Shown here: positions 1,563 through 59,348 of the stretch, piece after piece
Numbering within the stretch: position 1 is the first letter of the stretch
Layout: the number at the start of each line of letters is the position of its first letter
Assembly (NCBI GenBank): GCA_024683775.1
Contig: GCA_024683775.1_4106.1
DNA from: a phage
Reading direction: 5' to 3' (one strand)
DNA: 64,000 nt
Made by a program: the position numbers and the translations under genes
The notes under the pieces: model-generated
Told to the model about the DNA's origin: nothing
Database searches by the model: none
Seen by the model: only the letters and a program-made list of their open reading frames with translations

Positions 1563-1601
1563 TTAATAAATATCTTCATATTACTGATGGAGATATTTTC
1601 T

Positions 1602-1910
1602 ATGTCACAGATATGTTATGTTATAGTAAATGATGCGTGGCCTGATTATGTTAAGATAGGATTTACCAGTAAATCTGAAATGACAGAACGTTTAAGGACA
1701 TATCAAACTGCTACACCTTTTAGAGATTTTGTGGTATACCATGAAGTACACTTTGAAGATGCACGTTTAGCAGAGAAAGAAATTCACAAAAGACTAAAAC
1801 AAATGAACGCAGTAAGGCAACCTAACACCGAGTGGTTCAAGATGCCTAAGAAGATAGCAGCGAACATCGTTGATTCTGTTCTTGACGATATGGAAAACGA
1901 CTTGCTATAG
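1602..1910 (+). CDS. T5orf172 / GIY-YIG-like domain protein
   Basis: YVKIGFTSKSEMTERLRTY motif; GGAG 9 nt upstream of ATG 1602. Confidence 0.5.
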   Translation: MSQICYVIVNDAWPDYVKIGFTSKSEMTERLRTYQTATPFRDFVVYHEVHFEDARLAEKEIHKRLKQMNAVRQPNTEWFKMPKKIAANIVDSVLDDMENDLL

Positions 1911-1922
1911 TAATAAATATAG
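1911..1922 (+). promoter_or_regulatory. late-promoter-like element (ATAAATA core)
   Basis: taATAAATAtag about 33 nt upstream of the tail-fibre ATG; resembles T4 late -10 TATAAATA. Confidence 0.35.
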
Positions 1923-1951
1923 TATATATTAATCATTAAAGGGATTTATAC

Positions 1952-3580: not shown

Positions 3581-3581
3581 T

Positions 3582-4100
3582 ATGAAAACATATACACATT
3601 TCAAAAAATATATCCCAGTAGAAAAGAAACATGGAGATAATGTTCTTTATCTATTGTCAGATGAGGGTGTTGACTGGTATGATTGTCAAAACGAATTCAG
3701 ACAAGATACTTTAAAAGTTCAGTACTCTGACGATGGATATATTGCACAAGCATCATATGATGTAACATTGTTAGTACCGTATGGATACAGTGTTTCTGAG
3801 TTGGAGCATGATGGAGATGAAGATGAAGTAGTTGGTAAAATCTATGATGGAAGTAAAATTTCTGATTATGTTGAATCTACTGATGAAAAGATCAAACGTC
3901 TATCATCTGAGCACCAAGAATTAAGAACCGTAGCAATTAATGAGTTGAATAACATTAAGATGGCGATAGATCTTGAGGTAGCAACTGATTATGAAATAGA
4001 ACTGTTTCCTAAGTTGAAAGCATATGTTCTTGAGCTATCATCTCTAACAACATCTGAATTTAGTAAGAAGAAGTTTTCGTTCCCTGTTAAACCTGTTTAA
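3582..4100 (+). CDS. hypothetical protein, possible tail-fibre assembly/chaperone (by position only)
   Basis: 172-aa acidic ORF immediately downstream of the tail-fibre gene. Confidence 0.3.
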   Translation: MKTYTHFKKYIPVEKKHGDNVLYLLSDEGVDWYDCQNEFRQDTLKVQYSDDGYIAQASYDVTLLVPYGYSVSELEHDGDEDEVVGKIYDGSKISDYVESTDEKIKRLSSEHQELRTVAINELNNIKMAIDLEVATDYEIELFPKLKAYVLELSSLTTSEFSKKKFSFPVKPV

Positions 4101-4108
4101 AAGTTTTT

Positions 4109-4138
4109 TTGGAACAAAATCGTAAGTAGTGATACAAT
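4109..4138 (+). promoter_or_regulatory. promoter (TTGGAA, 18-bp spacer, TACAAT with TG extension)
   Basis: ttggaaCAAAatc box at -35 and tgaTACAAT; member of the GAGACAAAC-box promoter family. Confidence 0.45.
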
Positions 4139-4141
4139 GTA

Positions 4142-4177
4142 GTCATCTTACAGAGGTTGTGAGATGACATTTTTTTT
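4142..4177 (+). terminator. hairpin plus T-run (terminator or attenuator)
   Basis: GTCATCT / AGATGAC 7-bp stem at 4142-4148 and 4162-4168 followed by TTTTTTTT 4170-4177. Confidence 0.45.
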
Positions 4178-4201
4178 CAAAACACATGGAGAAGCAAACA
4201 A

Positions 4202-4507
4202 ATGGCAAAAGCTAAAAAAGAAGTTAAAGTTGAAATTCGTGACCTAAATGATGAACAACGTAAACGTCTAGGTGATGCACTAAACAACGCAGTAGTACAA
4301 CTTACTTTTATTGACGACACCAAAGCATCCTATGCAGATTTCATTAGTTCCATCTCTGATGAACTAGGTATTGATGCATCCGATATCAAACAAGCCGCTC
4401 AACGTATCTACAAAGGCGATTACTTTGATAAACAAAACAAACTCGATAATATCGAAACTATCCTAAGTGTTACTAACAATTTGCCACAAGCAGATGACGA
4501 TTACTAA
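4202..4507 (+). CDS. hypothetical protein
   Basis: 101-aa ORF with GGAG upstream. Confidence 0.45.
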   Translation: MAKAKKEVKVEIRDLNDEQRKRLGDALNNAVVQLTFIDDTKASYADFISSISDELGIDASDIKQAAQRIYKGDYFDKQNKLDNIETILSVTNNLPQADDDY

Positions 4508-4531
4508 TAAGTACTAAAAACTAAACTTTAT

Positions 4532-4560
4532 AGCCTCCAATGAATGGGGGCTTTATTTTT
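4532..4560 (+). terminator. rho-independent terminator
   Basis: AGCCTCCA/TGGGGGCT stem followed by TTTATTTTT. Confidence 0.5.
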
Positions 4561-4589
4561 AACTTAATAAACGTAAAGGAATACAAACG

Positions 4590-7500
4590 ATGTATATCGA
4601 TGCTTATATGGAACGTAAACGTACTGGTGATATTTTGCACGTAGCAGAACGTAAAAACGGTAAACGTATTCTACGTCAGTTGGACCCAGTATATGAATAT
4701 TATGTTGAATCTCCTACTGGTGAACACAAAACAATTTATGGAACTAACGCAAAGCATTTGGAGTTTGAAACTCAATCACAGATGAATAAAAGCGTTGAGC
4801 AACATAAAAATGAAGGTCTACGTATTTTTGAAAGTGATTGCAACATTACCTTCAAAACGTTGGCTAGAGAATACATGGGTAAAGGTTCGCCGGATTTGAA
4901 CGTAGCATTTTTCGATATCGAAACAGACTTCCATAAGAAGTTTGGTTATGCTCCACCATCAGATCCATTCAACCGTGTAACTGCAATTTCTCTATATCAA
5001 TCATGGACTGGTAAGGATTATGTACTGACTTTGCCACCAACTGATATGGAAATGTACGAAGCACAAGATATTGTTCGTCAGTTAAACGAAGAAACTAACG
5101 ACCCTAACAGTACTGTCATCCTTTATACGGATGAGAAAGAAATGTTTATGGAGTTCTTTAGTCTAATCGATGACTCTGATGTAATTTCAGGTTGGAACAG
5201 TGAATTCTTTGATATTCCATATATGGTCAACCGTACCAAGAAAATCTTCAACGAAGCAACTACTGCTCGTTGGTGTTTGTGGAATAAAAAACCAAATGCT
5301 CGTGAAGCTGATAACTTTGGTAAAACTGTAGTAACATATGATCTTATTGGTCGTGTACACTTAGACTATCTTGCTCTTTATAAGAAACATGCTGGTCAAG
5401 TTGAACAGTCGTACAAACTAGATTATATTGCTGAAAAGGTAACTAAAGAAAACAAAGTATCCTATGAAGGTTCATTGGATAAACTATACCGTGAAGATTA
5501 TATTACATTCTTGCGTTATTCTAAGCAGGATAGTATTCTTCTAAAGAAAATTGATGCTAAATGTGACTTTATCAACCTGCACAACCGTCTTGCTCATAAA
5601 GAATGTGTACTAATTAGTACTACAATGGGTTCGGTTGCACTAATCGACACTGCTATCATCAACCTTGCTCACAGTCGCGGTGAAGTTGTTTTTAACAAAG
5701 CACCGAAAGATGATATTGAGATAGATCCAGAGATGGAGTACTATGGTGAAGAAGGTGATGAAGAAGATGAGAAAATCAGTGCAAAAGCTGCTGGTGCATG
5801 GGTTCAAGATCCAGTTCTTGGCCTTGTTAGCGATTTGGGATGTACAGACTTTAACTCATTGTATCCAACTGTACTACGTACACTTGGCATGAGTACTGAA
5901 TGTATTCTTGGACAACTTCGTCAAGACTACACTGATGCATATCTTGCTGCTAAAGTACAAGAGCAAAAAGCTAAATCCAAATCTAAAGCGTTTGAACCTG
6001 ATTGGACCGCTGCATGGCATGGTTTATTTGCTGCTGTAGAATTTACAATGGTTCATGAAAAATCTGACAAAACTTTGATTGTTGATTTAGAAGATGGTAG
6101 TTCGTTCAATGCAACTGGTAAAGAATTGTATGATATTATCTTTGCTGAAGACAGTACTATTGTACTAAGTGCTAACGGAACACTTTTTGATAAGTCTAAG
6201 TATGGTGTAATTCCAGATATTCTTACTCAATGGTATTCTGAGCGTAAAGCACAACAAAAAATGGTAATCGACTACAAACACATGTACAGTGATGGGTGGG
6301 AATTCAATGGTTCTGAGAAGGTTGAACCTTTGCTATCTAACTACACAAGTGGTACAATGTTCCGTACAAACTTACATGACAATGATCCTGTTTATCTATT
6401 ACGTATTGCTATTGGTAAAGGTCAATGGGAAGAAGTTGCAAAACTCATTGTGGAAAATGGTTTAGTACTGAAAGATGGTCGTATTTTCTGTGCAACGGAA
6501 GATAAGAATTACTTCAAACAGCAAAGTGCATTCTGGAAACAGAACCAGCAAATTCGTAAGATTCTTCTAAACAGTCTATATGGTGCACTATTGAACAAAG
6601 GTTCACGTTTCTTTGATAAGCGTTTAGGTCAGTCCGTTACCTTAACTGGTCGTTCTATGACTAAACATATGGCAAGCCGTATCAATGAAATCACTACTGG
6701 TGTTTATAATCACCAAGGTGGCTCTGTAATTTACGGTGATACTGACTCCGTTTACTTCAGTGTAACTCATTACCTGAAAGAACAAGGTATTCCATATAAT
6801 CTTTCTAAAGAAGAAATTGTTGACATGTATATCAAAATCGGTGATGAAGTTGGTGAATCATTCCCTTCATTCATGAACGAAATGTTCAATACTGGTATTG
6901 AGAAAGGTAAGATTGTTGGTGCAGACCTAGAGATGGTCGGTTCCCGTGGTCTATTCCTGAAGAAAAAGCGTTATGCAATTCTCAAGTACTGGGAAGATGG
7001 TTTCCGTAAAGATGTTGATGGAAAGCCTGGTGAAATTAAAGCGATGGGTCTTGAAATTAAACGTTCAGATACGCCAAAATACATCCAGAACTTCCTAGAA
7101 GAGACTCTAATTGCATTGCTGGTGGGTGAGTCTGAAGCTCAACTTAAACAGCGTGTACGTGACTTTAAAGAGGTATTTAAAGACATGCCTGTACACGAAA
7201 AGGGTTCACCGAAAACTGTTAAGAACTATACCAACTTAGAAGCAGAATATGAAGTTTCTGGTAAATGTAAAGTTGGTCACGTATTAGCAGGTATTCAATG
7301 GAACCGTCTACGTGAAGTATATGATGACAAAACTGTACCTGAAGTAACTGACGGTACAAAAGTAATTGTATGTAACTTAAAAGATAACCCGATGGGTATT
7401 AAAGCAGTAGGTTACCCAATTGACTGTGTGGAATATCTACCTGAATGGTTCTTAGAACTACCATTTGATACAGAGAAAATGGAAGAAATAGTTCTAACTA

Positions 7501-7595
7501 AAAAATTAGAAAACATTTTTGGTATTCTGGATATGGATATTGGTATTCATGAGAAAAGCACAGCAGCCGTTAATAACGGATTCTTCACCTGGTAA
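4590..7595 (+). CDS. DNA polymerase, family B (T4 gp43-like)
   Basis: 1001 aa; exonuclease motif FFDIETD, polymerase motifs KILLNSLYGAL and YGDTDSVYF. Confidence 0.9.
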   Translation: MYIDAYMERKRTGDILHVAERKNGKRILRQLDPVYEYYVESPTGEHKTIYGTNAKHLEFETQSQMNKSVEQHKNEGLRIFESDCNITFKTLAREYMGKGSPDLNVAFFDIETDFHKKFGYAPPSDPFNRVTAISLYQSWTGKDYVLTLPPTDMEMYEAQDIVRQLNEETNDPNSTVILYTDEKEMFMEFFSLIDDSDVISGWNSEFFDIPYMVNRTKKIFNEATTARWCLWNKKPNAREADNFGKTVVTYDLIGRVHLDYLALYKKHAGQVEQSYKLDYIAEKVTKENKVSYEGSLDKLYREDYITFLRYSKQDSILLKKIDAKCDFINLHNRLAHKECVLISTTMGSVALIDTAIINLAHSRGEVVFNKAPKDDIEIDPEMEYYGEEGDEEDEKISAKAAGAWVQDPVLGLVSDLGCTDFNSLYPTVLRTLGMSTECILGQLRQDYTDAYLAAKVQEQKAKSKSKAFEPDWTAAWHGLFAAVEFTMVHEKSDKTLIVDLEDGSSFNATGKELYDIIFAEDSTIVLSANGTLFDKSKYGVIPDILTQWYSERKAQQKMVIDYKHMYSDGWEFNGSEKVEPLLSNYTSGTMFRTNLHDNDPVYLLRIAIGKGQWEEVAKLIVENGLVLKDGRIFCATEDKNYFKQQSAFWKQNQQIRKILLNSLYGALLNKGSRFFDKRLGQSVTLTGRSMTKHMASRINEITTGVYNHQGGSVIYGDTDSVYFSVTHYLKEQGIPYNLSKEEIVDMYIKIGDEVGESFPSFMNEMFNTGIEKGKIVGADLEMVGSRGLFLKKKRYAILKYWEDGFRKDVDGKPGEIKAMGLEIKRSDTPKYIQNFLEETLIALLVGESEAQLKQRVRDFKEVFKDMPVHEKGSPKTVKNYTNLEAEYEVSGKCKVGHVLAGIQWNRLREVYDDKTVPEVTDGTKVIVCNLKDNPMGIKAVGYPIDCVEYLPEWFLELPFDTEKMEEIVLTKKLENIFGILDMDIGIHEKSTAAVNNGFFTW

Positions 7596-8154: not shown

Positions 8155-8886
8155 ATGGATCTACGCAACGTACTACGTGACCTAGTTAACACTACCAACG
8201 GCATCGACTTTTCTTGTATCGCAGTTAGCAGTGAAGACCGTGGTGATGGACAGCGTGTTTACATGGAAGCATACACCGATGACCGCACCCTAGTTATGCG
8301 TGCTCACACTAAAGAAGACGTACCAGAAGTTCAAGGTCGTTTTGGTCTTGGTAACCTAGGTCTTCTACAGGGTCTAATGTCTCTAAAAACTTATAGTACT
8401 GAAGGAACTACTATCACTTCTAATTTGAAAGATGGTGCAGTTAAGAGCCTAGCATTCAAAGCAGAAGATGCAAGCACTACTTTCATGGTTCAACCAGAAA
8501 AACTAATTCCAGCCCAGCCTCGTTTCCACGAACAACCATATGACGTACAGGTTACACCTAGTGCAGCTAAAGTTCAGGAACTAAAAAGCTTCTCTGGTGT
8601 GTTTAAATCTTTCAGTTCTCTAGTAACTCCATACACTGAAGGTGATACTCTTTACTTCCACGTTGGTGAGAAGAACAAAAGTAACCACGTTGGTGCACTA
8701 GCATTCTCTAAAACTGAAGGTGAACTAGGTCTTGGTTTTGGTTATAACATTGACCGTGTTCTACAAGCTCTATCCCGCGTTTCTAACGCAGAATCTGTTA
8801 CCCTTGGTATTACCAAAACTGGTATGCTAAACGTAACTCTAGACACTGGTATTGCGGTATACAAGATTTACGTAACAGGTTGCTAA
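8155..8886 (+). CDS. sliding clamp (T4 gp45-like)
   Basis: 243 aa; NVLRDLVNTTNGI and FGLGNLGLLQGLMSL align by eye with the T4 gp45 N-terminal region; highly biased codon usage; position near polymerase. Confidence 0.55.
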   Translation: MDLRNVLRDLVNTTNGIDFSCIAVSSEDRGDGQRVYMEAYTDDRTLVMRAHTKEDVPEVQGRFGLGNLGLLQGLMSLKTYSTEGTTITSNLKDGAVKSLAFKAEDASTTFMVQPEKLIPAQPRFHEQPYDVQVTPSAAKVQELKSFSGVFKSFSSLVTPYTEGDTLYFHVGEKNKSNHVGALAFSKTEGELGLGFGYNIDRVLQALSRVSNAESVTLGITKTGMLNVTLDTGIAVYKIYVTGC

Positions 8887-9160: not shown

Positions 9161-9463
9161 ATGAAAATTAAAATGATTAACGATTATGTACTGGTTCGTC
9201 AAATTGAAGCACAGAATAAAAGTACTGGTGGTATTATCCTAGGAAACGTGGAACCACCATGTGTTGGTATGGTGATTTCAGTTGGTGAAGGTAAAGTACT
9301 ACCTAATGGGCAAATTGCAGAACATAATATTTGTGTTGGTGATATGGTTGTATTCGGTCGCTCATCACTAAACACTCCTATCACTGAAGATCTTGGTGGT
9401 GGTGAAGACACATATTATGTGATGAAAATTGAAGAAATTTTTGGTAAGAAATCAAATGGCTAA
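9161..9463 (+). CDS. GroES-like co-chaperonin (gp31-like)
   Basis: DYVLVRQIEAQNKSTGGIILG ... VGDMVVFG matches the Cpn10 pattern; GGAGG 7 nt upstream of ATG 9161. Confidence 0.6.
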   Translation: MKIKMINDYVLVRQIEAQNKSTGGIILGNVEPPCVGMVISVGEGKVLPNGQIAEHNICVGDMVVFGRSSLNTPITEDLGGGEDTYYVMKIEEIFGKKSNG

Positions 9464-11651: not shown

Positions 11652-16908
<5,257 letters not shown>

Positions 16909-18191: not shown

Positions 18192-19310
18192 ATGAAAATG
18201 ACAAGTGGTTTTGCAAACATTCTAAAAAATAGTACTGGTAGCGTTAAAAAGAATACTGGTGTTAGCGTAGGCTTTCATGATCCTGATACATGGATTAGTA
18301 CTGGTAACTTTGCTTTGAACTATCGTATTAGTGGTTATTTTGACCGTGGTATTCCACTAGGTAAAGTAACCATGTTTGCTGGTGAATCTGGTTCTGGTAA
18401 ATCATTTATCGTTTCTGGAAACATCGCCCGTGAAGCACAACAACAAGGTATCTTTGTTGTTATGATTGATTCCGAGAACGCATTGGATTCAGATTGGCTA
18501 CAAGCACTAGGTGTAGACACTTCAGAAGAAAAACTACTAAAAGTAAACATGGGTATGATTGGTGATGTTGCTAAATTTACCTATGAGTTCATCGAAGGGT
18601 ATCGTAAAGAATACGAAAATACTCCTAAAGAAGAACGTCAAAAAGTATTATTCATTATCGACTCAATTGGTATGTTGAATACTGAAGTTGCTAATGACCA
18701 GATGAAAGCTGGTAACTTGAAAGGTGATATGGGTCACAAACCTAAACAGCTTAAAGCTTACATCACCAACTGTGTAAACTCGATTGGTTCACTTAACATT
18801 GGTATGGTTTGTGTAAACCATAGTTATGAATCCCAAGATATGTTCAACCCTGATCCAAAAGTATCTGGTGGTAGTGGTTTGATTTATGCATCTTCTATGG
18901 TTATCGCAATGGGTAAACTAAAACTTAAAGAAGATGAAGAAGGCAACAAGACTTCAGATGTAAGTGGTATTCGTTCTAAATGTAAAGTCATGAAGACTCG
19001 TTACAACAAACCATTTGAAGATGTTGAGATTAAAATTCCTTGGGATAAAGGTATGGACCCACGCAGTGGTCTACTAGATATGTTCGAGAAATATGAACTT
19101 ATCGTTAAATCTGGTAACCGTCTAATGTACGTTGATATTGACACTGGTGAACAGATTCTAAAATATCGTAAAGAATGGATGCGTAACGAAGATTCTTGCC
19201 TTGATTTAGTTATGAATCAATTCAAACGTCACCCTTTGATTGAAGAAGTCAAAGAAGAAGAAAAAGGTGATGAATCATTTGGTACTGATATTGGAAGTAG
19301 TGAGGAATAA
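18192..19310 (+). CDS. uvsX: RecA-family recombinase UvsX
   Basis: Walker A GESGSGKSF in a RecA/UvsX-like context; AGGAG RBS. Confidence 0.85.
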   Translation: MKMTSGFANILKNSTGSVKKNTGVSVGFHDPDTWISTGNFALNYRISGYFDRGIPLGKVTMFAGESGSGKSFIVSGNIAREAQQQGIFVVMIDSENALDSDWLQALGVDTSEEKLLKVNMGMIGDVAKFTYEFIEGYRKEYENTPKEERQKVLFIIDSIGMLNTEVANDQMKAGNLKGDMGHKPKQLKAYITNCVNSIGSLNIGMVCVNHSYESQDMFNPDPKVSGGSGLIYASSMVIAMGKLKLKEDEEGNKTSDVSGIRSKCKVMKTRYNKPFEDVEIKIPWDKGMDPRSGLLDMFEKYELIVKSGNRLMYVDIDTGEQILKYRKEWMRNEDSCLDLVMNQFKRHPLIEEVKEEEKGDESFGTDIGSSEE

Positions 19311-19818: not shown

Positions 19819-20637
19819 ATGACAAAATTAGATGAGTTCCTATCAAACGTATCAGTACTAGACACCGAAACAACTGGTGTCGAAAGTGAAGATGATATTA
19901 TTGAATTTAGTATTTCATATCCTCACGATGCACATGAGAATATTGATACTATTGATAACTACACTTTGCGTTATAAACCACTAAAAGATATACCACCAGA
20001 AGCAAGTGCTGTGCATTTTATCAGTACTGAAGATGTAGCAAACTGCATTGGTTATAAAGATGACTTAGAAAACATTGACGCACTAATGGGGTGTCGTAGT
20101 TATTTTATTGGACACAACGTTCAATTTGACCGCCGAATGATGGTAGATAATGAATATAAATATCGTAACTCAGTTTCGCAGTACTTGCTCGATGAAGATA
20201 AATGGATTTGTACCCTTCGTTTAGCTAAGAAGATGTTTGCAGAAGACACTGAATTCAAAAACTTAACTCTAAGTTATTTGTGGTATAAATTTGGTTGCTA
20301 TCGTGACGTACATCGTGCAGTGAATGCTCACGCAGCAAAAGATGACGTATTCATGTGTTACCAAGTTCTAATCAAATTGATTGAAGTTGCGATTGAACGT
20401 GGACATATTGACCCTAATGGTGACATTGGTGAACAAATCGTAACATTCTGTAATACACCAATGCGTTATAAATTCATGCCATTTGGTAAACACAAAGGCG
20501 AACCAATGGAAACTGTTCCATTGAACTATATTGAATGGATGATTACTAACAGTGATATCCTTGATGCAAGTAACCCAAACTGTGATAAAGATTTAGTATA
20601 TACATTTGAGTACGAATATAATACTCGAACTAATTAA
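19819..20637 (+). CDS. DnaQ-like DEDDh 3'-5' exonuclease
   Basis: Exo I LDTETTG, Exo II GHNVQFD, Exo III H...D (HRAVNAHAAKDD). Confidence 0.65.
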   Translation: MTKLDEFLSNVSVLDTETTGVESEDDIIEFSISYPHDAHENIDTIDNYTLRYKPLKDIPPEASAVHFISTEDVANCIGYKDDLENIDALMGCRSYFIGHNVQFDRRMMVDNEYKYRNSVSQYLLDEDKWICTLRLAKKMFAEDTEFKNLTLSYLWYKFGCYRDVHRAVNAHAAKDDVFMCYQVLIKLIEVAIERGHIDPNGDIGEQIVTFCNTPMRYKFMPFGKHKGEPMETVPLNYIEWMITNSDILDASNPNCDKDLVYTFEYEYNTRTN

Positions 20638-23131: not shown

Positions 23132-23977
23132 GTGTTAGATTTCAGTAATATTAAAGCTAAGTCAGTAGACGAAAACGATAAACCAACCCAGCATACATTT
23201 TCTATTGCTGAATTTCTAAAACATATTGACCGTGCAGATTACAAATACTATAATGACATGACCGAAGATGAGCGTAAGGAATTTACGCCTTATACTGTAC
23301 TTCGTTGGGTAAGTTCACTTGATGACTCACTTCAAGTAACTTTCCCTAGTAGTAAAGTGGAAAACGTATTTGGTAAGTGGAAAGCTGGTGGCAAAGAAGC
23401 ACTCACTGAACTTGTCAAAGAACTCAATAGTACTGGTGTTAATGTAACATCAGTTACTAAGTACTGTCACAGTGACTATGATTGGCGTATCAAGTTTGCC
23501 GTACAAAGCAATGATGATGCTAACAAGTTGATTGCAGCAATGACTGAATTTAGTATTGCTGGTGGACAGATCATCTCATTGGTTGACAGTGACGTTGTAC
23601 GTTATCAGTTGATTATGTTGAATGATATGGTTAATGATGGGTTCTGGGATATGAAAGAACACCCTGAACTTGTATATCAACTACTATGTTCTGTTCATGA
23701 TATGTTGGGTGGTAAGGAATTACCACGAAACTGGTTAAACTTTTCCAAGAGTTTTAAGCGTGCTAATAATGAATTATTTGAACTCATTAAAAGTACACAG
23801 CCAGATTCAATCGCAACTCAAATGAACGAAGATGAATATAAAATTGTTTTGTTGCAATATAACAAAAAAACATTCGAGTCTTTCCTTGAAGACATAGGTT
23901 TACAAGAGAAAGAAATGAAATCAATGATGAAATTATTTAAAGAAGAATGTAAGAAATATGGCAAAGAAATCAAGTAG
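23132..23977 (+). CDS. hypothetical protein
   Basis: 281-aa ORF, GTG start with AGGAG 7 nt upstream. Confidence 0.4.
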   Translation: MLDFSNIKAKSVDENDKPTQHTFSIAEFLKHIDRADYKYYNDMTEDERKEFTPYTVLRWVSSLDDSLQVTFPSSKVENVFGKWKAGGKEALTELVKELNSTGVNVTSVTKYCHSDYDWRIKFAVQSNDDANKLIAAMTEFSIAGGQIISLVDSDVVRYQLIMLNDMVNDGFWDMKEHPELVYQLLCSVHDMLGGKELPRNWLNFSKSFKRANNELFELIKSTQPDSIATQMNEDEYKIVLLQYNKKTFESFLEDIGLQEKEMKSMMKLFKEECKKYGKEIK

Positions 23978-24668
23978 TCCCGTATACAAATGTAAGTTCT
24001 GTGATAAAGAATTTAAACGCGAAGACACAGTTAACACACATAAGTGTGTTAAACGTGACCGCTATGAAGATCGTGATAGCCGCCCCATGAGGGAGGCTTT
24101 TCGCATTTATATGCAATTCATGGAGTTAAACCATTTCCCTTTCAAGAAGGGAGTTGAACCATTAATGGCTTTTATAAAATCAAAGTACTTTAGTGATTTT
24201 TATGATTTTGCAATTTATTATTTGAACAACCGTGATATTTTAGATATTGATGGTTTTGTAAAAAGTCTAATTGTAAGAAACCGTCCTATTATGGAATGGA
24301 GTACTTATAAAGCAAAGGATGAATGGATATTAGATTGTATTCGTTCAGAATCTCCCAATGCTGCGGTTTCCCGTAGTGTTGTTGCGATGGTGGAATGGGG
24401 TCAGAATCTGAACTTGGAGTGGAATAAGTTTTTTTCCAATGTGAGTTCTGCCCGTGCAATTGCATGGATTGAGAGTGGTAAGATTTCACCTTGGATTATC
24501 TGGTTAGCACCAAAAGAAAGTACTAATAAGTTTTTCAAGAATCTCTCTAACTCTGAAATCGAGTATATACTTAAATACATTGATCCTAGTTACTTTGAGG
24601 TTAAAACTATAAAGTACAAAAAGGAATGTGATGAAATAAAAAGTATGCTACGTGAGGCTGGATTATGA
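23958..24668 (+). CDS. hypothetical protein with N-terminal C2H2-like zinc finger
   Basis: YKCKFCDKEFKREDTVNTHKC motif. Confidence 0.4.
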   Translation: MAKKSSSPVYKCKFCDKEFKREDTVNTHKCVKRDRYEDRDSRPMREAFRIYMQFMELNHFPFKKGVEPLMAFIKSKYFSDFYDFAIYYLNNRDILDIDGFVKSLIVRNRPIMEWSTYKAKDEWILDCIRSESPNAAVSRSVVAMVEWGQNLNLEWNKFFSNVSSARAIAWIESGKISPWIIWLAPKESTNKFFKNLSNSEIEYILKYIDPSYFEVKTIKYKKECDEIKSMLREAGL

Positions 24669-24994
24669 ATGGAAAAAGTATATATAATAAAATACCAGAA
24701 GGGTATGTACCTGTGCCTAAAGCAGATAAATCTAAATCTTTATCATTGCTTAGACAGGGTTCTATAACTGAAATTACACTTGATGGTAAAACCTTTCAGG
24801 TGCACGATCCTGTTCGTGTAGAAAAAATTATCAGTATGGTTGAAAGACATGAGGAAAGATTCTTTGGTCTAAGTCAAGAGTTGTCAAAGACCAAACAAAA
24901 GTGTACAATGTTAGAAAATCAGGTAACCAAATTATCTAACACTGTAAACAAATTGCAGGAGCAAATCAAAAATGCAGGATTCGACAAATTCTAA
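24665..24994 (+). CDS. hypothetical protein
   Basis: 109-aa ORF with C-terminal coiled-coil-like segment. Confidence 0.4.
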   Translation: MNGKSIYNKIPEGYVPVPKADKSKSLSLLRQGSITEITLDGKTFQVHDPVRVEKIISMVERHEERFFGLSQELSKTKQKCTMLENQVTKLSNTVNKLQEQIKNAGFDKF

Positions 24995-25610
24995 TTCGTA
25001 CCGTAAAGCACGAACAGATATCGACATTGACTTCAAAGATAGTAAGTCAGTGATTGCACAGCTTCCTTGTGTGCGAAGTACAGAAAAAATTACGGAGGAT
25101 GGTTTAATCCCCCATAACAGTGGTGTTCATTTTGATAATATACCAATTGACCCTATCACTGGTTTAGCCAGCATACAATATAAAGAAGCCGAACGCTTGG
25201 GATATCAAAAGGTAGATATCCTGTCACAATCGGCTTACCAGTATGTTCGTGATAGAGCACATTTAAAAGAACTAATGAATCAGGAACCTAATTGGGATCT
25301 TCTGTTAGAACCAGAAATAGTTGAACATCTTTCACAGATTAAAAAACACGTTACATTATTAAATGTGTGGAAACCTAAATCCATTGATGAACTTGCAATG
25401 TTTATTGCAATGATTCGTCCTGGAAAAAGGCAGTGCCAAAGTATGAATACATGGAGTGAAGTTGAATCCACTATATGGGATTACAGTACTATTGGCACAG
25501 ACCAAGCAGGAAATAAGTTACGATATTTCAAAAAGCCACATGCGTATGCATACAGCTTAATGATTGTAGTTCAACTTAACGCTTTAGTTGAACATCTTAC
25601 TTCTTCTTAA
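24972..25610 (+). CDS. DnaE-like (Pol III alpha) palm-domain fragment, C-terminal half
   Basis: TDIDIDF resembles the DnaE catalytic PDFDVDF; IDELAMFIAMIRPG vs DnaE FEDMIALVALFRPGP; HAYAYSLM vs SHSAAYALV; GGAG RBS. Confidence 0.45.
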   Translation: MQDSTNSNSYRKARTDIDIDFKDSKSVIAQLPCVRSTEKITEDGLIPHNSGVHFDNIPIDPITGLASIQYKEAERLGYQKVDILSQSAYQYVRDRAHLKELMNQEPNWDLLLEPEIVEHLSQIKKHVTLLNVWKPKSIDELAMFIAMIRPGKRQCQSMNTWSEVESTIWDYSTIGTDQAGNKLRYFKKPHAYAYSLMIVVQLNALVEHLTSS

Positions 25611-25950
25611 GAGCCACATTACGACGCTTGATGCGTTTTTGTGGCAAATCACTTAAAGAAACTACTGGACCACAAACGAAATTCACCGCAGGGGTATCGA
25701 ATCTCTGTGTGTAAGGTTCAAATTTCTCCATCTCTTCTTGGAAGAATAGACAGACTGGAATTGACCTGTTGCTTTGCCACCACCAATCATGTGCTATACC
25801 CAACAATTCATCTTGCATTGGTTCATCCATATCATCAAAGCAGTAAAGAGTAGTATACTGTTTACTTTTTATCTTGATAATACCAATGAAAGTTTTACCA
25901 TCACACTGAACTACCGTGATAAATGGTGGAATAGTATTATATTGATTCAT
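25597..25950 (-). CDS. hypothetical protein (lone minus-strand gene)
   Basis: 117-aa ORF with basic C-terminus; TATAAAT elements in the divergent upstream region. Confidence 0.4.
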   Translation of the reverse strand: MNQYNTIPPFITVVQCDGKTFIGIIKIKSKQYTTLYCFDDMDEPMQDELLGIAHDWWWQSNRSIPVCLFFQEEMEKFEPYTQRFDTPAVNFVCGPVVSLSDLPQKRIKRRNVALKKK

Positions 25951-26007: not shown

Positions 26008-26985
26008 ATGGCTCATCACGGCGTGTTTATGTACCCTTATAACCAAGAAGTATCATTGGGCAATTTTAATATGCCATATAGCAATGAGAAACTTACAATA
26101 TACAGAGGTGCAAATAACAATTTATCATTCACAGTGCATAACGCTGATGGAAAATATACATTACTAAAAGATAACGAATATCTAACATTCATGATTTTTG
26201 ATGCTAGAAACAATACTAAATTATTCGATGTAGTTTTGGATAAACAAAAACCATCATGGCTATCAGAAAGTGGACAAGCAAGACAAACATTAGGCAATAG
26301 TAAAAAAGTATATTATGGATGTATTGTTCCTGCTGGTGTAATTCAGGATACTAGTCCTGGTTCAAAATATAGATGGAGTATTACTAAAGTAACAATGGAT
26401 GGTTCCTTGATTGAACCTACACAGTACTTATACACTGGTCTTGATTATGAAGCCTCTGCTGAATTGATCATTTCCGACCAAGCTGCTCCTGTGTTTGTGC
26501 CAAGTATTGAAGTATCTGTTAATAAAAACCCAGCATGGACTACCATCAAACGCTTGTATCATGAACCAATCGCTCGTGGCGTTATTGGTGAATTTGATAT
26601 AATGGCAACATCTCCCCTTCCTGCACAAATGCAGTACGGATTAGTTGATGGTCTTAGTACTATTGCAATGTACTTTGATAAATTCATTGGTAGAATTCAA
26701 TTACAAGGATGTTTGTGTAATAACGTACCAACTGATAACGAAAACTATAAATGGTTTATTGTTAAATTGGATGGTAAAGAATATATCGAAAATGATATTG
26801 ATGAAAATGGATTCCCTAAAGCGTTAGATGGGATTCAAGCATTTAATTTTAAAGGTAATTACATGTGGTTGCGATTGGTTGTTTGTATTCATCCTAAGAT
26901 CGTTCCAGTTCCTTATGACTATGCGGCAGTAAGAAAAGTCTATGACCCACTACTGTCAGTTCCTAAAATTTTGATTCGCAGGTGA
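26008..26985 (+). CDS. hypothetical late protein (probable structural)
   Basis: 326-aa ORF from ATG 26008 with GGAAGG RBS; the track ORF from 25774 extends upstream without RBS. Confidence 0.45.
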   Translation: MAHHGVFMYPYNQEVSLGNFNMPYSNEKLTIYRGANNNLSFTVHNADGKYTLLKDNEYLTFMIFDARNNTKLFDVVLDKQKPSWLSESGQARQTLGNSKKVYYGCIVPAGVIQDTSPGSKYRWSITKVTMDGSLIEPTQYLYTGLDYEASAELIISDQAAPVFVPSIEVSVNKNPAWTTIKRLYHEPIARGVIGEFDIMATSPLPAQMQYGLVDGLSTIAMYFDKFIGRIQLQGCLCNNVPTDNENYKWFIVKLDGKEYIENDIDENGFPKALDGIQAFNFKGNYMWLRLVVCIHPKIVPVPYDYAAVRKVYDPLLSVPKILIRR

Positions 26986-27011
26986 GACAAAACAAGTGTT
27001 TGTGCTATAAT
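26982..27011 (+). promoter_or_regulatory. promoter with GAGACAAAC-type -35 box
   Basis: gtGAGACAAAac at 26982-26993, 18-nt spacer, tgcTATAAT with TATAAT at 27006-27011. Confidence 0.5.
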
Positions 27012-27040: not shown

Positions 27041-28096
27041 ATGAACGCTGTACAAAACATCATGGCACAAATCATGAATGACCCAGTACCAGGAATTGGT
27101 ATGTGGACACATCACAATTGTCCTGCTTGTGTGTTCCGTGGTCATTCACGCCCCGATACTAAAAATCGCGGCAATCATATGTTTAACGCAGATGGTTCTG
27201 TTTCTTATAACTGTTTTAACTGTAGTCTAAAAACTGGGTGGCAACCTGGAAAATATATGAGCAAAGATATGGAGTCTTTGCTCATTTCTTTTGGTGCACA
27301 GGATAAGGAAATAGAACTAGCTAAATTTTACATTAAAGAAATGGTTGATAGTGGAGACTTTGCAGAACAAGAAACTACTGCATCTAAACTATATCAACGT
27401 GTAACTGTTCGTGAATTACCACCGAACTCAAAAACATTTTGGGAATGGGCATCGTTACCAGAAGAGCAAATACCACAAGAATTTATTAGTGTTCTGAATC
27501 ATGTGAATGAGCGAAATCCATATCTATTAGATTTAGAATTGTATTGGAGTCCAGCTAAAGAACATAAAATGTATGACCGATTTATCATACCATACGTTAT
27601 GAACGGTAAAATTATCGGATATACTGCTAGACACAAACTTAAAGACCCAGGAAGTACCTATCGTTTTATTAATCAGGTCAGTACTAATATTCTATATAAT
27701 TATGATCTGTTACAAGATGAACGAATTAAAACTATATTAGTTTGTGAAGGTCCAATGGATGCAGCACTAATGGGTGGTGTTTCTGCAAATAACTTTAAAT
27801 TGTCAGCAGTACAAATAGATGTACTTAAAGCTGCACAAGAAAAAGGTAAAAAGATTGTTATCGTACCAGACCGTGATAAGGATGGATTACAAACAATCGA
27901 ACAAGCACTAGAATATGGATTTAGTGTTTCTTTCCCAGATTTTGGGGCAGTACGTGTTGGAAGTACTATACGTCACATTAAAGATTTTGACGAAGCATGT
28001 GCTAGATTTGGAAGATTATTTTGTTTACAACTGATACATGATAGTATAGTTGACGAGCCTTTCTATATTAAAGCACAAACGGATAAGTGGATGTAA
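27041..28096 (+). CDS. DNA primase (T4 gp61-like)
   Basis: N-terminal zinc-binding HNCPAC...CFNC, Toprim-like LVCEGPMDA. Confidence 0.75.
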   Translation: MNAVQNIMAQIMNDPVPGIGMWTHHNCPACVFRGHSRPDTKNRGNHMFNADGSVSYNCFNCSLKTGWQPGKYMSKDMESLLISFGAQDKEIELAKFYIKEMVDSGDFAEQETTASKLYQRVTVRELPPNSKTFWEWASLPEEQIPQEFISVLNHVNERNPYLLDLELYWSPAKEHKMYDRFIIPYVMNGKIIGYTARHKLKDPGSTYRFINQVSTNILYNYDLLQDERIKTILVCEGPMDAALMGGVSANNFKLSAVQIDVLKAAQEKGKKIVIVPDRDKDGLQTIEQALEYGFSVSFPDFGAVRVGSTIRHIKDFDEACARFGRLFCLQLIHDSIVDEPFYIKAQTDKWM

Positions 28097-28122: not shown

Positions 28123-29643
28123 ATGATTCAAAGCACAGTGGACGTCAAACAGTATGGGATTAATGCACAACAATACTTACTATCCCAAGTTTTCAGTAAT
28201 CCAGATTTATTTGTACGTTGTAAAAATATTCTAAAGCCAGAATATTTTGATAAAACATTTCATGAAAGTATTCAGTACGTTCATGATTATGCAGCAAAAT
28301 ATAGTTCATCCCCTACACTGAAAGATATCGAAGTGAAAGGTGGTTATCAGTATGATCATTATGAAGTACAAGAACTTCATAAACAGGCAGTACTGGATAC
28401 CTGTAGTGAGTTTTGCCGTCACAAAGCTCTAGCTCTAGCAGTAGAGAAAGGTATGGAATTAGTACATCAGAAAAAATATGGTGGCATCGAAGAACTCATT
28501 CGTGAAGCTATGTTAGTATCTGTACAGAATGAGTTGGGTCTTGATATCTTTGAAAATCCAGAAGATACCATTCGTTCATTGAGCACTATGCAAGGTTCAT
28601 TCAAGAGTGGATGGGAAACCCTTGACTATAAACTATTCGGTGGTTTTGGTCGCCGTGAACTTGAAATCTTTGCAGCCGCGTCTGGTGGTGGTAAATCAGT
28701 AGTACTACAGAACTTAGCAGTTAACTTTGCTAAGGCTGGTATGAATGGTGCATACATTTCACTAGAACTAGCAGAAGAGTTGGTAGCCGTTCGTATCTAT
28801 GGTATGATGACTGAATCTAAGCTAAGTAACGTTAAGAACGAAGCTGAAAAGATTGGTCTACGAGTTCAAATGGAAGGCAAGGATAGTGGTATATTGCGTA
28901 TTAAACGTTTACCAGAATCCGTAACAACCACTGATGATATTGAAAGTTATCTTCGTGAATTGCAAATTAAAATGGAAGTCAAATTAGATTATGTTTGTGT
29001 GGACTACCTTGACCTATTAACATCAAATCGTCTTGGTCCTAATGATAAATCTAATACATTTACAAAAGATAAATTTGTATCTGAAGAATTGCGTGCACTA
29101 GCAACCAAAATGGATTTGACCGTCTTCACTGCGTCACAGTTTAACCGTAGTGGTATGGATGAAGATAAGAAAAGTCAAAGTCAGATTGCTGGTGGTATTT
29201 CTAAAATCTATACTGCGGATAACGTTATCTACATTGAAGCACGTAAAGAAACTGGCGAACTTTGGTTTGACTTCCAGAAAACACGTAACAGTAGTGCAGT
29301 TGGTTCACGTTTGCGTATGTCATATGATATCGATTCACTTCGTGTACTAGACCACGCAACCACAATCCAACAATTCGAAACTGATGGGTCAGGATTCCGT
29401 CACAGTGGCATCTCTAAGGTCGGCGGTGGTAACATGGCAATGCCACCAAGTACAATGCAAACACTGCGTCATACGCTTTCTGGTGCTCCTAAACCAAGCA
29501 CTACACCGAGTGTTGAAAGCGTAACACTAAATACAGATAGTGATCCAATCACTTCTACACAAACTGAATCCCAGCCTCAACAGCCTCACATTGGTACTGA
29601 TCGTGTAAATGCAATGAAGCAATGGTTAAATCAAAGGAAATAA
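28123..29643 (+). CDS. replicative DnaB-family helicase (T4 gp41-like)
   Basis: Walker A AAASGGGKSV in a RecA-fold context; 506 aa. Confidence 0.8.
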   Translation: MIQSTVDVKQYGINAQQYLLSQVFSNPDLFVRCKNILKPEYFDKTFHESIQYVHDYAAKYSSSPTLKDIEVKGGYQYDHYEVQELHKQAVLDTCSEFCRHKALALAVEKGMELVHQKKYGGIEELIREAMLVSVQNELGLDIFENPEDTIRSLSTMQGSFKSGWETLDYKLFGGFGRRELEIFAAASGGGKSVVLQNLAVNFAKAGMNGAYISLELAEELVAVRIYGMMTESKLSNVKNEAEKIGLRVQMEGKDSGILRIKRLPESVTTTDDIESYLRELQIKMEVKLDYVCVDYLDLLTSNRLGPNDKSNTFTKDKFVSEELRALATKMDLTVFTASQFNRSGMDEDKKSQSQIAGGISKIYTADNVIYIEARKETGELWFDFQKTRNSSAVGSRLRMSYDIDSLRVLDHATTIQQFETDGSGFRHSGISKVGGGNMAMPPSTMQTLRHTLSGAPKPSTTPSVESVTLNTDSDPITSTQTESQPQQPHIGTDRVNAMKQWLNQRK

Positions 29644-29646
29644 TGA

Positions 29647-29919
29647 ATGTCTAGTAAATCCAATAAAAAGAATCTACTTGATAGTATAGTTGACTATACA
29701 CCAGAGAAAGATACATTACAGAGTTTTGGTAATCGTGCAGATCATGCAATCAACTCTGTTATTCATTTATTGGAGAGTATCGAAGATGAATTTAACCAAA
29801 CTGATGCTGAAGATTTGAAGAAACGTTTATTTCTTAGTATTAAGAACCGAGATTATAAAAAGTTTCAGAAGGGCTTGGAGAACATAGCACTTGATGAAAA
29901 ACGTAATAAAGGGAATTGA
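29647..29919 (+). CDS. hypothetical protein
   Basis: 90-aa ORF. Confidence 0.4.
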   Translation: MSSKSNKKNLLDSIVDYTPEKDTLQSFGNRADHAINSVIHLLESIEDEFNQTDAEDLKKRLFLSIKNRDYKKFQKGLENIALDEKRNKGN

Positions 29920-29920
29920 T

Positions 29921-30088
29921 ATGAAGAAGAAAACTAAACTAAAAGAAAATGCTTCTGCTGGTGCAACATCAGCAGGTGCAGTAGCATCAGTCAGTACTGG
30001 ATTAAATTACCCATTACTTCGAAGAATGCCTCCTACAAATTTCTTTGGATATAAAGTTGTTGAGACTAAAAATAAGGATATTGAATGA
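29921..30088 (+). CDS. hypothetical small protein
   Basis: 55-aa ORF from ATG 29921. Confidence 0.3.
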   Translation: MKKKTKLKENASAGATSAGAVASVSTGLNYPLLRRMPPTNFFGYKVVETKNKDIE

Positions 30089-30477
30089 AACCATATACTT
30101 TCTACACAATTAATACTGTTGTAGATATAGGTGATGGTACAACTCCAACAATCATCGATTCTAAGTTCACAGGTGCTATGAATTTGTCGAGGTTGTTGGA
30201 GGCTATTATGGTACATGATTATCCCATGATGGTAAGTGTAGTAAAAACTGAAATAGATCTATATAAAGATAACAACGCATCTTTCTATAATCTTCCAGTT
30301 TCATGGGGTAAATGTACTCTTAGTACTTTCAAATTCGCAATACCAATGGATGTTGATTTGCGTTTGAATGGAATACCATTAGTTTTACCTACAGAATTAA
30401 ATGGTAAAAGAATTACAAAATTTATCACAACAGGTAATGATACAAATATTAGCATCAGCAAACAGACCTTTTCTTAA
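30085..30477 (+). CDS. hypothetical protein
   Basis: 130-aa ORF. Confidence 0.4.
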   Translation: MKPYTFYTINTVVDIGDGTTPTIIDSKFTGAMNLSRLLEAIMVHDYPMMVSVVKTEIDLYKDNNASFYNLPVSWGKCTLSTFKFAIPMDVDLRLNGIPLVLPTELNGKRITKFITTGNDTNISISKQTFS

Positions 30478-46463: not shown

Positions 46464-47526
<1,063 letters not shown>

Positions 47527-47539
47527 CAGTATATAACCT

Positions 47540-49706
<2,167 letters not shown>

Positions 49707-56514: not shown

Positions 56515-56826
56515 ATGTTCAATCCATTTTTTGATCCATCAACCATGACCGAGAAAGAGTTACAATTGAAAATTAACGAACAATCGATGCGTATTACGTC
56601 TGCTCGTGCAGCAGGTATGAGTGATATGATTGTTGGTAACATGCAAACCGTTCTGAATCAGTGCTATGCTGAATTAGAGATTCGTCAGGGACAAAAAGAA
56701 AAAACCTCCTATGATGAGCAAGACCCATGTATATTTGACATGAACTCTTACTTAACGGATAACGAAGAGGATCAGAAGAAGAAAAATGAAAGTACAAGGA
56801 AACAGATTTATAAGTCCCAATGGTGA
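56515..56826 (+). CDS. hypothetical protein
   Basis: 103-aa ORF. Confidence 0.4.
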   Translation: MFNPFFDPSTMTEKELQLKINEQSMRITSARAAGMSDMIVGNMQTVLNQCYAELEIRQGQKEKTSYDEQDPCIFDMNSYLTDNEEDQKKKNESTRKQIYKSQW

Positions 56827-57304
56827 TGTAAAATGTAACCTTAATGCAGTCGTGTATGCAATCAACTGTGGTGCAGATATTCAGTACTTACAGCTACAGG
56901 AGATTGATGAACCGGAACGATTGAAATTTAACGATAATTGTAAAAAATTTGGTTTAGAACAGCGTATGCTGGATTATACAATAGAACATGATAAAAACCA
57001 TGAGCTATGGCGTTATGATCCAGTGTACGATAACATCAACTTGCGTGAGTACTTTTTACAGAAATGTACATCGGATGAAGCCCGTGAACGTGTAATGTAT
57101 GAGATTGATTTGTTTGAACATTACAACATGACTAAGCTTTTAAGATGTATGATCTGGTTAGTTGATTATATGGAAGAGCACAATATTTTTTGGGGTCTTG
57201 GGCGTGGTAGTTCAGTGGCTTCGTATTGTTTGTTCCTGATTGATTTGCATATGGTTGATTCTTTGAAGTATAAACTAGATGTAAATGAATTTTTGAAATG
57301 GTAG
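56786..57304 (+). CDS. DnaE-like (Pol III alpha) palm-domain fragment, N-terminal half
   Basis: WGLGRGSSVASYCLFLIDLHMVDSLKYKLDVNEFL resembles DnaE [34 protein letters not shown]; ends just before where the catalytic Asp pair would lie. Confidence 0.45.
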   Translation: MKVQGNRFISPNGDVKCNLNAVVYAINCGADIQYLQLQEIDEPERLKFNDNCKKFGLEQRMLDYTIEHDKNHELWRYDPVYDNINLREYFLQKCTSDEARERVMYEIDLFEHYNMTKLLRCMIWLVDYMEEHNIFWGLGRGSSVASYCLFLIDLHMVDSLKYKLDVNEFLKW

Positions 57305-57344
57305 AAAAACATGTGATATAATGTTGTTTGAGGCGTTATATCAC
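57293..57344 (+). promoter_or_regulatory. promoter (TTGAAA, 18-bp spacer, TGtgaTATAAT) embedded in a 9-bp inverted repeat
   Basis: -10 at 57317-57322; GTGATATAA at 57313-57321 and TTATATCAC at 57336-57344 are perfect inverted repeats. Confidence 0.45.
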
Positions 57345-57367
57345 TCACATAGAAAAAGGATTTTTAT

Positions 57368-57715: not shown

Positions 57716-58042
57716 ATGACCAATAAAGTAATGACAGCTTGTAAAGGTAAAGTTATTGTAACTGAACTAGAACATGGTGAGCGTAAAACCGCAGGTGGTA
57801 TTGTACTGACAAGTGATGATGGTAAGATACGTGGTATTCGTTGTCGTTGGGCTAAAGTATATTCTGTTGGTGAAGACATTACCGATATCAAAGAAGGACA
57901 ATGGATTCTAATTGACCACGGTCGTTGGTCGAGAACTATTGAGATTGATGGTATTAAAATGAATCTCGTTGATTATCCAGCAGCAGTAAGTTTGGTATCT
58001 GACACTGATCCACGCATCTCTGCTCAAACATTTGGTCGTTAA
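57716..58042 (+). CDS. GroES-like co-chaperonin (Cpn10 family)
   Basis: GKVIVTELEHGERKTAGGIVLTSDDGK closely parallels GroES [27 protein letters not shown]. Confidence 0.7.
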   Translation: MTNKVMTACKGKVIVTELEHGERKTAGGIVLTSDDGKIRGIRCRWAKVYSVGEDITDIKEGQWILIDHGRWSRTIEIDGIKMNLVDYPAAVSLVSDTDPRISAQTFGR

Positions 58043-58394: not shown

Positions 58395-59348
58395 ATGACT
58401 ACATTATGGACTGAAAAATACCGCCCACAAACTATGGAAGATTATGTATCTAAGAACGAAGCCCTACGTCAGAAGATGGAAGAATGGATTCGTACTGGTG
58501 ATATCCCACATATTGGATTTTTTGGACCAGCAGGGACAGGTAAAACTTCAGCAATCAAAGTACTACTGAATGGTCTGGAAGCTAACGGACACCTTGACCC
58601 TAGTGATGTAACAACACTGAATATGTCAGATGAAGGTATCGATGCTGTTCGTGACAAAATTGATGCAGCAGCAAAACTATCATGTTTTGGTCGTTATCGT
58701 GTATTTGTTCTGGAAGAAATGGAACAAATGAACCACAAAGCACAGGGTAGCTTGAAACGTGTCATGGAAGATTACCATGAAAATGCTCGTTTCATTCTTA
58801 CCAGTAATGAACCACATAAGATTCAGAAACCTATTATCTCTCGTGTTCAGGTCATCACCATTGAGAAGCATGATATGGAACAATTCATGTCACGCATCTA
58901 CAACGTACTATTGGCAGAAGGAGTAGATCTAAGTACTGATGAAAGTATTGAACAAGTACAAAAATACATCAATGTTTCATATCCTGATTTCCGCAAAACG
59001 CTAAACGTATTGCAAAGTTCAGTAGTCGATGGTAAACTTGTAAAGCTTGAAGACAGTATTGAGAACTCTGCTGGGTATCGTACTGCCATTATTGATGCAC
59101 TAAAAGCTGGTAACATTCGTCAAATGCGTGAGCAGATCGTGCAAAACATTCCTGATGATGAGATGGATGCATTCTTCTCTTATCTGTATCGTAATGCAGA
59201 AATGTTCAGTACTGATGAAATTACTCTAATGAAAATTAAGGTTAAGATTCGTGACGCTGTTGTTAAACAAGCTACCGTGTCTGACCGTGAAATGAATCTC
59301 AGTGCATTACTGTGTGAGATTGACCTAATCTGTTCGGGGAACATGTAA
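58395..59348 (+). CDS. clamp-loader ATPase (RFC-like; T4 gp44-like)
   Basis: EKYRPQTMEDYV, Walker A FFGPAGTGKTS, LTSNEPHKI sensor region. Confidence 0.85.
   Translation: MTTLWTEKYRPQTMEDYVSKNEALRQKMEEWIRTGDIPHIGFFGPAGTGKTSAIKVLLNGLEANGHLDPSDVTTLNMSDEGIDAVRDKIDAAAKLSCFGRYRVFVLEEMEQMNHKAQGSLKRVMEDYHENARFILTSNEPHKIQKPIISRVQVITIEKHDMEQFMSRIYNVLLAEGVDLSTDESIEQVQKYINVSYPDFRKTLNVLQSSVVDGKLVKLEDSIENSAGYRTAIIDALKAGNIRQMREQIVQNIPDDEMDAFFSYLYRNAEMFSTDEITLMKIKVKIRDAVVKQATVSDREMNLSALLCEIDLICSGNM

Follow-up and report, generated by a model that had tools for sequence, protein, structure and literature searches.

A 172-aa open reading frame (ORF) in a 64,000-nucleotide stretch of phage DNA (hereafter, the window) raises the question of whether a polymerase of the bacterial DnaE type can be encoded in two pieces and, if so, whether the pieces make one enzyme. 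The initial annotation had read this ORF as the N-terminal half of a miniature DnaE-like polymerase core, the other half being a 212-aa ORF on the same strand, 31 kb upstream. Our analysis supports this reading of the 172-aa ORF, which had been called with exactly the right coordinates, strand, and length (Table 1). We estimate a probability of about 75% that its product is one of two subunits, the N-terminal one, of a minimal, intein-free C-family (DnaE-like) polymerase core that is likely accessory.

Gene calls for the window were taken from the annotation of the matching stretch of fEgEco12 and from Pfam scans. Over the 4 kb around the N half, nine Escherichia jumbo phages (EC.P1, fEgEco12, WPEC5, and Ecwhy_1 among them) share 99.0-99.5% identity with the window, and PBECO4, 121Q, and other Asteriusvirus phages share ~81%. 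Judged by its gene content, the window is a T4-like replication and morphogenesis region. Besides the genes in Table 1, it carries those for a gp32-like SSB, a RecA/UvsX-like protein, a UvsY-like protein, a UvsW-type helicase, ribonucleotide reductase, and topoisomerase.

Table 1. Positions in the window of the two half-genes, their active-site motifs, and other genes considered here
Feature	Position	Strand	Details
Family B DNA polymerase with 3'-5' exonuclease domain, gp43-like	4590..7595	+	1001 aa; PF03104 E 1.3e-22, PF00136 E 3.7e-21; labelled 'DNA polymerase' in fEgEco12
Sliding clamp	8155..8886	+	fEgEco12 annotation only; no Pfam match at E <= 0.001
DnaQ/RNase T-type 3'-5' exonuclease	19819..20637	+	272 aa; PF00929 E 1.6e-14
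C half of split mini-DnaE	24972..25610	+	212 aa; palm beta-sheet, three catalytic aspartates, shortened fingers
DxD strand, D16-I-D18-I-D20 (in TDIDIDF)	25017..25031	+	invariant in 51 homologues; equivalent to E. coli D401-F-D403-V-D405
K80-V-D82, D82 being the third catalytic aspartate	25209..25217	+	invariant; equivalent to E. coli K553-F-D555
DNA primase, near C half	27041..28096	+	annotation
DnaB-type replicative helicase, near C half	28123..29643	+	PF03796 DnaB_C E 4.1e-17
N half of split mini-DnaE	56786..57304	+	172 aa; ATG start, TAG stop
GS motif codons, G139-R140-G141-S142-S143	57200..57214	+	read from sequence; equivalent to E. coli G361-R362-G363-S364
GroES/gp31-like co-chaperonin, two genes downstream of N half	57716..58042	+	Cpn10 E 1.1e-4; PHROG 931 E 3.7e-20
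Clamp-loader AAA+ subunit, gp44/RFC-like	58395..59348	+	317 aa; PF13177 E 2.1e-12; AAA, Gp44_lid; PHROG 168 E 3.4e-78

A split enzyme of this kind is already known from comparative genomics. Iyer, Anantharaman, Krishnan, Burroughs, and Aravind (2021, Viruses 13:63; PMC7824862) describe a split minimal Pol III alpha in 'group 2.2' jumbo phages: the N-terminal protein binds NTP, the C-terminal one binds Mg2+ and template, and their genes are distant from each other and accompanied by a family B polymerase. The authors call the enzyme previously unrecognised and phage-specific, propose that the halves reconstitute a complete enzyme, and suggest that it cooperates with the family B enzyme in the synthesis of one strand or acts in repair. 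The pair in the window is the same entity, with nothing different in kind. It too resides with a family B polymerase and a T4-type replisome, and the window phage has the hallmarks of group 2.2 (a family B polymerase, a gp32-type SSB, a UvsW-type helicase, an RFC-like loader, IF3, and KTSC). The genes for the IF3 homologue and the KTSC-domain protein lie at 46464-46967 and 47601-48146 on the plus strand (fEgEco12 annotation); both are among the group 2.2 features given by Iyer et al. (PMC7824862). A 2025 genome paper lists the gene merely as 'DNA polymerase III DnaE', and PHROGs label both half families 'DNA polymerase', which many GenBank records follow for one or both genes. Our literature search found no biochemical, structural, or genetic work on any split mini-DnaE member and no discussion of the split enzyme after the 2021 paper; a 2026 jumbo-phage review does not mention it. 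We add a comparison of the predicted structures with solved DnaE and PolC, the exact seam, dN/dS values, synteny to PA5oct and Slickus01, a 141.6-kb non-jumbo host phage, and rare single-chain fusions, one of them linked to a Rep gene; we saw none of these points in the available part of PMC7824862.

The resemblance of the N half to DnaE is above chance by HMM. Pfam PF07733 (DNA_pol3_alpha) matches it at 36.4 bits, over a curated cut-off of 23.9 (E 5.8e-9), with residues 90-171 aligned to profile positions 15-95 of 260, and PHROG 11127 ('DNA polymerase') covers it in full (E 3.9e-85). The block that carries the motif, in the C-terminal third of the protein, reads GLGRGSSVASYCLFLIDLHMVDSLKYKLDVNEFLKW. 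It had been described as GRGS-x-x-SY...VD..KY.L...FL, and it is indeed present and DnaE-like, but the spacing given was one residue short at two places: three residues (SVA) rather than two separate GRGS from SY, and four (DVNE) rather than three separate L from FL. The N half contains the GS motif, the nucleotide-binding loop of the Pol-beta-like nucleotidyltransferase fold. We collected 110 homologues of the N half (95-187 aa); PF07733 was found in all but one fragment, and none of the 110 has a fusion partner. Across 52 aligned homologues, down to 29% identity, residues W75, R102, E106, G137, G139, R140, G141, S142, S143, V144, S146, Y147, and H155 are invariant, and nearly all of the proteins terminate at or just past EFLK. 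The profile built from these 52 retrieves only DnaE chains from the PDB. Profile positions 100-173 align with residues 320-393 of E. coli DnaE, the terminal ..EFLKW falling on FERFLN393. Because the profile ends at E. coli residue 393 and the aspartates are D401 and D403, the N half stops eight residues before the metal-binding strand, i.e., upstream of the catalytic aspartates, as had been proposed. One position counts against the reading: where E. coli has R390, the N-half family has a glutamate (E168) that is nearly invariant. An AF2 model of the N half (pLDDT 84.4) consists of helices and the GS loop, and its best Foldseek matches are DnaE and PolC only.

The catalytic triad is found in the upstream ORF, whose N terminus is MQDSTNSNSYRKARTDIDIDF. 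In this C half, the DxD strand aligns to residues 413-424 of Mtb DnaE1 and the K80-V-D82 stretch to the KMDFLG segment of the same protein. Invariant among 51 aligned homologues are D16, D18, D20, K80, D82, R149, P150, K152, H190, and Y194, of which R149 and P150 correspond to R639 and P640, and H190 and Y194 to H760 and Y764, of E. coli DnaE. The motifs DxDxD, KxD, RPxK, and HxxxY are collinear with Mtb DnaE1. The family is large (789 matches at 90% clustering, 562 representatives at 50%), and nearly all of its members are 190-220 aa long. The sequence evidence for the C half is weak when taken alone, i.e., a match to Pfam DNA_pol3_finger at E 0.04, below the cut-off, and a profile match to the PDB at E 0.25, not significant by itself, so that a comparison of folds was needed. 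In the AF2 model of the C half (pLDDT 92.9), the top 12 Foldseek matches are all DnaE, and the beta-sheet of the palm lies wholly in this half (strands 16-21, 34-41, 44-53, and 80-85). The two halves were modelled separately, and their Foldseek E-values are modest (4e-3 and 1.4e-2, with TM-scores of 0.36-0.49). DnaE or PolC is the best match of both. Between them, the two ORFs carry the marks of a C-family core: a PF07733 match, a GS loop, a catalytic triad (from the partner ORF), and a DnaE-type palm plus fingers.

To locate the seam, we aligned a concatenated N+C alignment with E. coli DnaE using hhalign. The join is artificial, but the match is continuous over the junction (query 109-208 on DnaE 319-419; probability 91%, E 1.1e-6), with FLKW paired with FLNPE and RKARTDIDIDF with RVSMPDFDVDF. 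A natural fusion, P0381, likewise matches PF07733 straight through the junction (residues 99-207 on profile positions 14-121, E 9.3e-16). The seam maps between E. coli N393 and D401, and on these alignments the break is placed inside the catalytic palm, between the GS-loop subdomain and the DxD strand. With the break there, neither protein has a complete active site, and non-covalent docking of the two would be required to form one. The separate models make it plausible that each half is an autonomous folding unit. We suggest that the N half would contribute a helical subdomain with the G-R-G-S loop, the element that binds the triphosphate of the incoming dNTP in Pol III alpha. From the C half would come the beta-sheet with its three catalytic aspartates and shortened fingers (RPG, KxHxxxY), and the two would dock non-covalently to form one complete active site.

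Both genes sit in conserved surroundings. The GroES-like gene and the clamp-loader gene do adjoin the N half, as noted earlier; the Cpn10 match of the former is 22.6 bits against a cut-off of 21.1, and the latter is identified by PHROG 168. In PA5oct, from a different phage family, a small ORF and a GroES-like chaperonin gene come after the N half, and a gene for a 309-aa protein lies where the window has the clamp-loader gene. After the C half of PA5oct come a small convergent ORF, a structural gene, and the primase and DnaB helicase genes. The window shows the same order. Slickus01 keeps the convergent ORF, primase, and helicase grouped with the C half, with the clamp loader 1.4 kb upstream. 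The gene for each half is preceded by a virion-protein gene. The convergent ORF of the window encodes 117 aa (25597-25950, minus strand) and overlaps the 3' end of the C half by 14 nt; in PA5oct, Slickus01, and the loci L006 and L007, the same place beside the C half is taken by a reverse-strand ORF of 108-132 aa. Scans for sigma-70 promoters and terminators around both halves gave nothing above shuffled expectation. We noted a strong promoter-like site of the extended -10 type at 57293-57345 on the plus strand (TTGAAA, an 18-nt spacer, and TG-n-TATAAT) that overlaps the stop codon of the N half and is followed, just 5' of a 114-aa ORF at 57368, by the inverted repeat GTGATATAA...TTATATCAC. 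A similar TG-TATAAT site precedes the primase gene (26982-27011).

Single-chain forms exist in nature, in four clusters of 336-376 aa. An exhaustive search of the representatives returned P0288 (375 aa) and P0373 (336 aa), in which the C-half match begins at residues 190 and 110, respectively, and the preceding parts are N-half homologues with an RGS loop and a short linker before DxD. Two more clusters on separate contigs, P0380 and P0381 (78-81% identity), confirm the P0288 fusion. The genes of these three close fusions (375-376 aa) occupy the genomic position of the C-half gene; examples are found on ENA and Logan metagenome contigs (L004, 1066-2193; L006, 519-1649). Their nearest relatives are split, with C parts 58-67% identical on contigs of 144-285 kb, and the gene order 3' of the fused gene on L006 is that found 3' of the split C half in these relatives. 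A neighbour-joining tree of 334 C domains, which is distance-based and midpoint-rooted, places the three close fusions as one clade nested in split clades, and P0373, on a long branch, separately among split forms. Since they are nested among split forms, the fusions look secondary and independent, although the tree is suggestive only.

Immediately upstream of the P0373 gene, on a plasmid-like, high-GC contig (L005), is a ColE2-type Rep/primase gene. The pair spans positions 1516-4181, the start of P0373 lying 4 nt within the end of the upstream gene, which encodes 552 aa with a PF03090 'Replicase' match (50.7 bits) and an HTH. This contig (JGI metagenome 3300080032, Ga0669126_0033275, 7992 bp) has a bacterial or plasmid-like look, unlike a jumbo phage. 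The two genes may form a minimal replication module of a Rep-primase and a polymerase. P0373 as the sole query retrieved nothing from bacterial genomes. The C-half profile found 18 loci in bacterial genomes, all in metagenome-assembled bins and none in isolate genomes, and an N half was present within 5 kb of the C half at none of the 18. A 187-aa ORF that overlaps the start of the C half in L007 was considered as an N half; it is a zinc-finger protein instead, positionally homologous to window 23958-24668.

What would such an enzyme do? A phage with its own family B replicase, clamp, clamp loader, primase, and helicase would most likely use the mini-DnaE as an accessory enzyme: the family B polymerase is the main replicase, which makes the mini-DnaE a second polymerase. 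The PHP domain, most of the thumb, the distal fingers, and the clamp-binding, OB, and tau-binding regions are absent. Neither half has a PHP, HhH, or OB Pfam match, and tblastn of E. coli DnaE against the window found no other DnaE pieces (nothing at E below 5). Two chains of 172 and 212 aa that lack PHP, thumb, clamp-binding motif, and OB make a minimal variant, not a canonical DnaE/PolC. Without thumb, distal fingers, and accessory domains, the enzyme is expected to be distributive, and processive synthesis is doubtful given that it has no thumb or recognisable clamp-binding region. Its most likely role is that of an accessory DNA polymerase of low processivity that works at the fork or close to it, with possible jobs in extending the primers of the neighbouring primase-helicase, in gap-filling, or in repair synthesis. 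The location of the C half by the primase-helicase genes, and of one fusion by a Rep/primase-type replicase gene, would favour primer extension or short-patch synthesis. A more elaborate version, in which an active two-subunit polymerase works with the phage primase-helicase, extending primers or handing them off to the family B replicase, and the fusions replicate small replicons, is tentative, and we hold it to be rather doubtful. It has a parallel in Bacillus, where DnaE serves as the primer-extending, hand-off polymerase for PolC. It is also conceivable that the DnaQ-type exonuclease of the window acts as a proofreading partner of the mini-DnaE. The exonuclease gene sits between recombination genes and that of the UvsW-type helicase, and its product has a short C-terminal QSregVF_b match (E 3.5e-5). 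The product of the CBB homologue is described as a Pol III epsilon-like DnaQ protein (PMC5259590).

Three other readings of the pair were weighed. In the first, it would be a heterodimeric nucleotidyltransferase and not a replicative or repair DNA polymerase. It might, for instance, transfer nucleotides without a template or under RNA direction, tail primers, or make nucleotide signals or decoys against host defence. The Pol-beta-like nucleotidyltransferase superfamily includes many non-polymerase enzymes, lengths and alignments show that thumb, clamp-binding region, and proofreading domain are absent, and the phage already has a complete family B replisome. Against these points, the fingers motifs RPG and K-x-H-x-x-x-Y (KSHxxxY), which are DnaE-specific, are invariant in the C half, and its fingers superpose on those of PolC and DnaE over 185-193 residues in structural alignment. 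The conserved neighbourhoods also speak of replication, with the clamp loader beside the N half and primase plus helicase beside the C half, as does the fused homologue that directly follows a Rep/primase-type replicase gene. We therefore consider the nucleotidyltransferase reading unlikely.

The second reading takes the ORFs as decaying fragments of a captured dnaE, or as independent of each other, with a resemblance that has no catalytic meaning. The 172-aa protein was noted as a 'truncated' Pol III alpha in the CBB genome paper of 2017 (PMC5259590), and one or both genes are 'hypothetical' in many records. Selection and occurrence argue otherwise. First, in the comparison with PBECO4, the N half has a dN/dS of 0.010 and the C half one of 0.036; with RaK2 and K64-1, the values are 0.055 and 0.125. 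A range of 0.01-0.125 for both genes indicates purifying selection. Second, every catalytic and nucleotide-binding residue is invariant among >50 homologues of each half, at identities as low as about 30-40%. The termini are conserved, and the family has 562 representatives at 50% clustering. Third, the halves co-occur. By tblastn, 93 phage records contain the N half and 96 the C half, the counts per genus being nearly the same, and both were present in every case checked individually (PA5oct, SCTP-2, Xoo-sp13, Vibrio phage 2.275.O, phiKp_21 as a partial record, and Slickus01). Finally, the fusions, which look independent, join the halves in frame and in the DnaE order. We regard decay or independence as largely refuted and very improbable.

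The spacing between the halves varies among the split isolate genomes examined from 11 to 116 kb: 44 kb in PA5oct, 116 kb in SCTP-2, and 14 kb in Xoo-sp13. The shortest distance belongs to Alishewanella phage Slickus01 (OQ508957.1), with halves at 68346-68957 and 79796-80308 (18346-18957 and 29796-30308 on locus L030). This myovirus has a genome of 141.6 kb, which shows that the split enzyme also occurs in phages below 200 kb. Its family B polymerase is annotated as two adjacent ORFs (2558-4261 and 4261-5196).

The last alternative, that a split intein or RNA trans-splicing joins the halves covalently into a single-chain active enzyme, has a precedent in Synechocystis DnaE, but it is hardly credible here given that neither ORF matches any intein or Hint Pfam family at E <= 1 (as the initial annotation had held), that the junction has no conserved Cys/Ser/Thr at the +1 position, and that each ORF has its own start and stop codons. 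A split intein requires roughly 100 + 35 residues, and there are too few at both junction ends to make room for one. The N half has from zero to a few residues past EFLK (0-1 in most homologues), and the C half has 15 before the first catalytic aspartate (0-5, often none, in many homologues). Nor do the genes flanking the two halves include homing endonucleases.

The two-piece, intein-free core that we favour can be placed beside three known systems. With bacterial DnaE and PolC (PDB 2hnh, 2hpi, 5lew, and 3f2b), it shares the Pol-beta-like palm, the GS loop, the DxD, the third aspartate, the RPG and KSHxxxY fingers motifs, and a collinear motif order. It differs in having 384 aa in two chains where bacterial DnaE has 1160 aa in one, and 62 residues between DxD and KxD (the thumb) where E. 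coli has 150; the phage fingers stop near E. coli DnaE residue 782. Cyanobacteria (Synechocystis/Nostoc) encode DnaE-n and DnaE-c in two distant genes whose products are joined by a naturally split intein. There, too, a C-family polymerase arises from two distant genes of one genome, but the cyanobacterial break lies in the fingers and is trans-spliced, whereas the phage break lies in the palm and has no intein. Split family B polymerases, i.e., gp43A/gp43B of some T4-related phages and the two-gene PolB of Methanothermobacter, are non-covalent: their catalytic core consists of two polypeptides that associate without splicing. They belong to another family and fold, and their pieces are usually neighbouring genes with a mobile-element insertion between them, unlike the widely spaced halves of the phage mini-DnaE.

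If active when reconstituted, the enzyme would be the smallest known C-family DNA polymerase, with 384 aa in total or 336-376 aa as a single chain. It would be a rare natural case of an active site divided between two unlinked genes without an intein, and it would show how little the bacterial replicase fold needs for catalysis and offer a simple, tractable model for the ancestral Pol III core. It would also pose the puzzle of why phages with a full T4-type family B replisome keep a second polymerase of bacterial type.

Two further features of the window were noted. Its GroES-like genes number two: the one at 9161-9463 (plus strand) has a strong, full-length Cpn10 match (E 1.1e-16), and the one near the N half, with its weak Cpn10 match, falls in the PHROGs class of head morphogenesis (gp31-like). 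The large terminase is encoded by three consecutive overlapping ORFs on the plus strand (13259-13945, 13917-14261, and 14224-15561), labelled 'DNA packaging protein gp17', 'terminase large subunit', and 'large terminase subunit' in fEgEco12; this trio could be another split gene or a case of programmed frameshifting.
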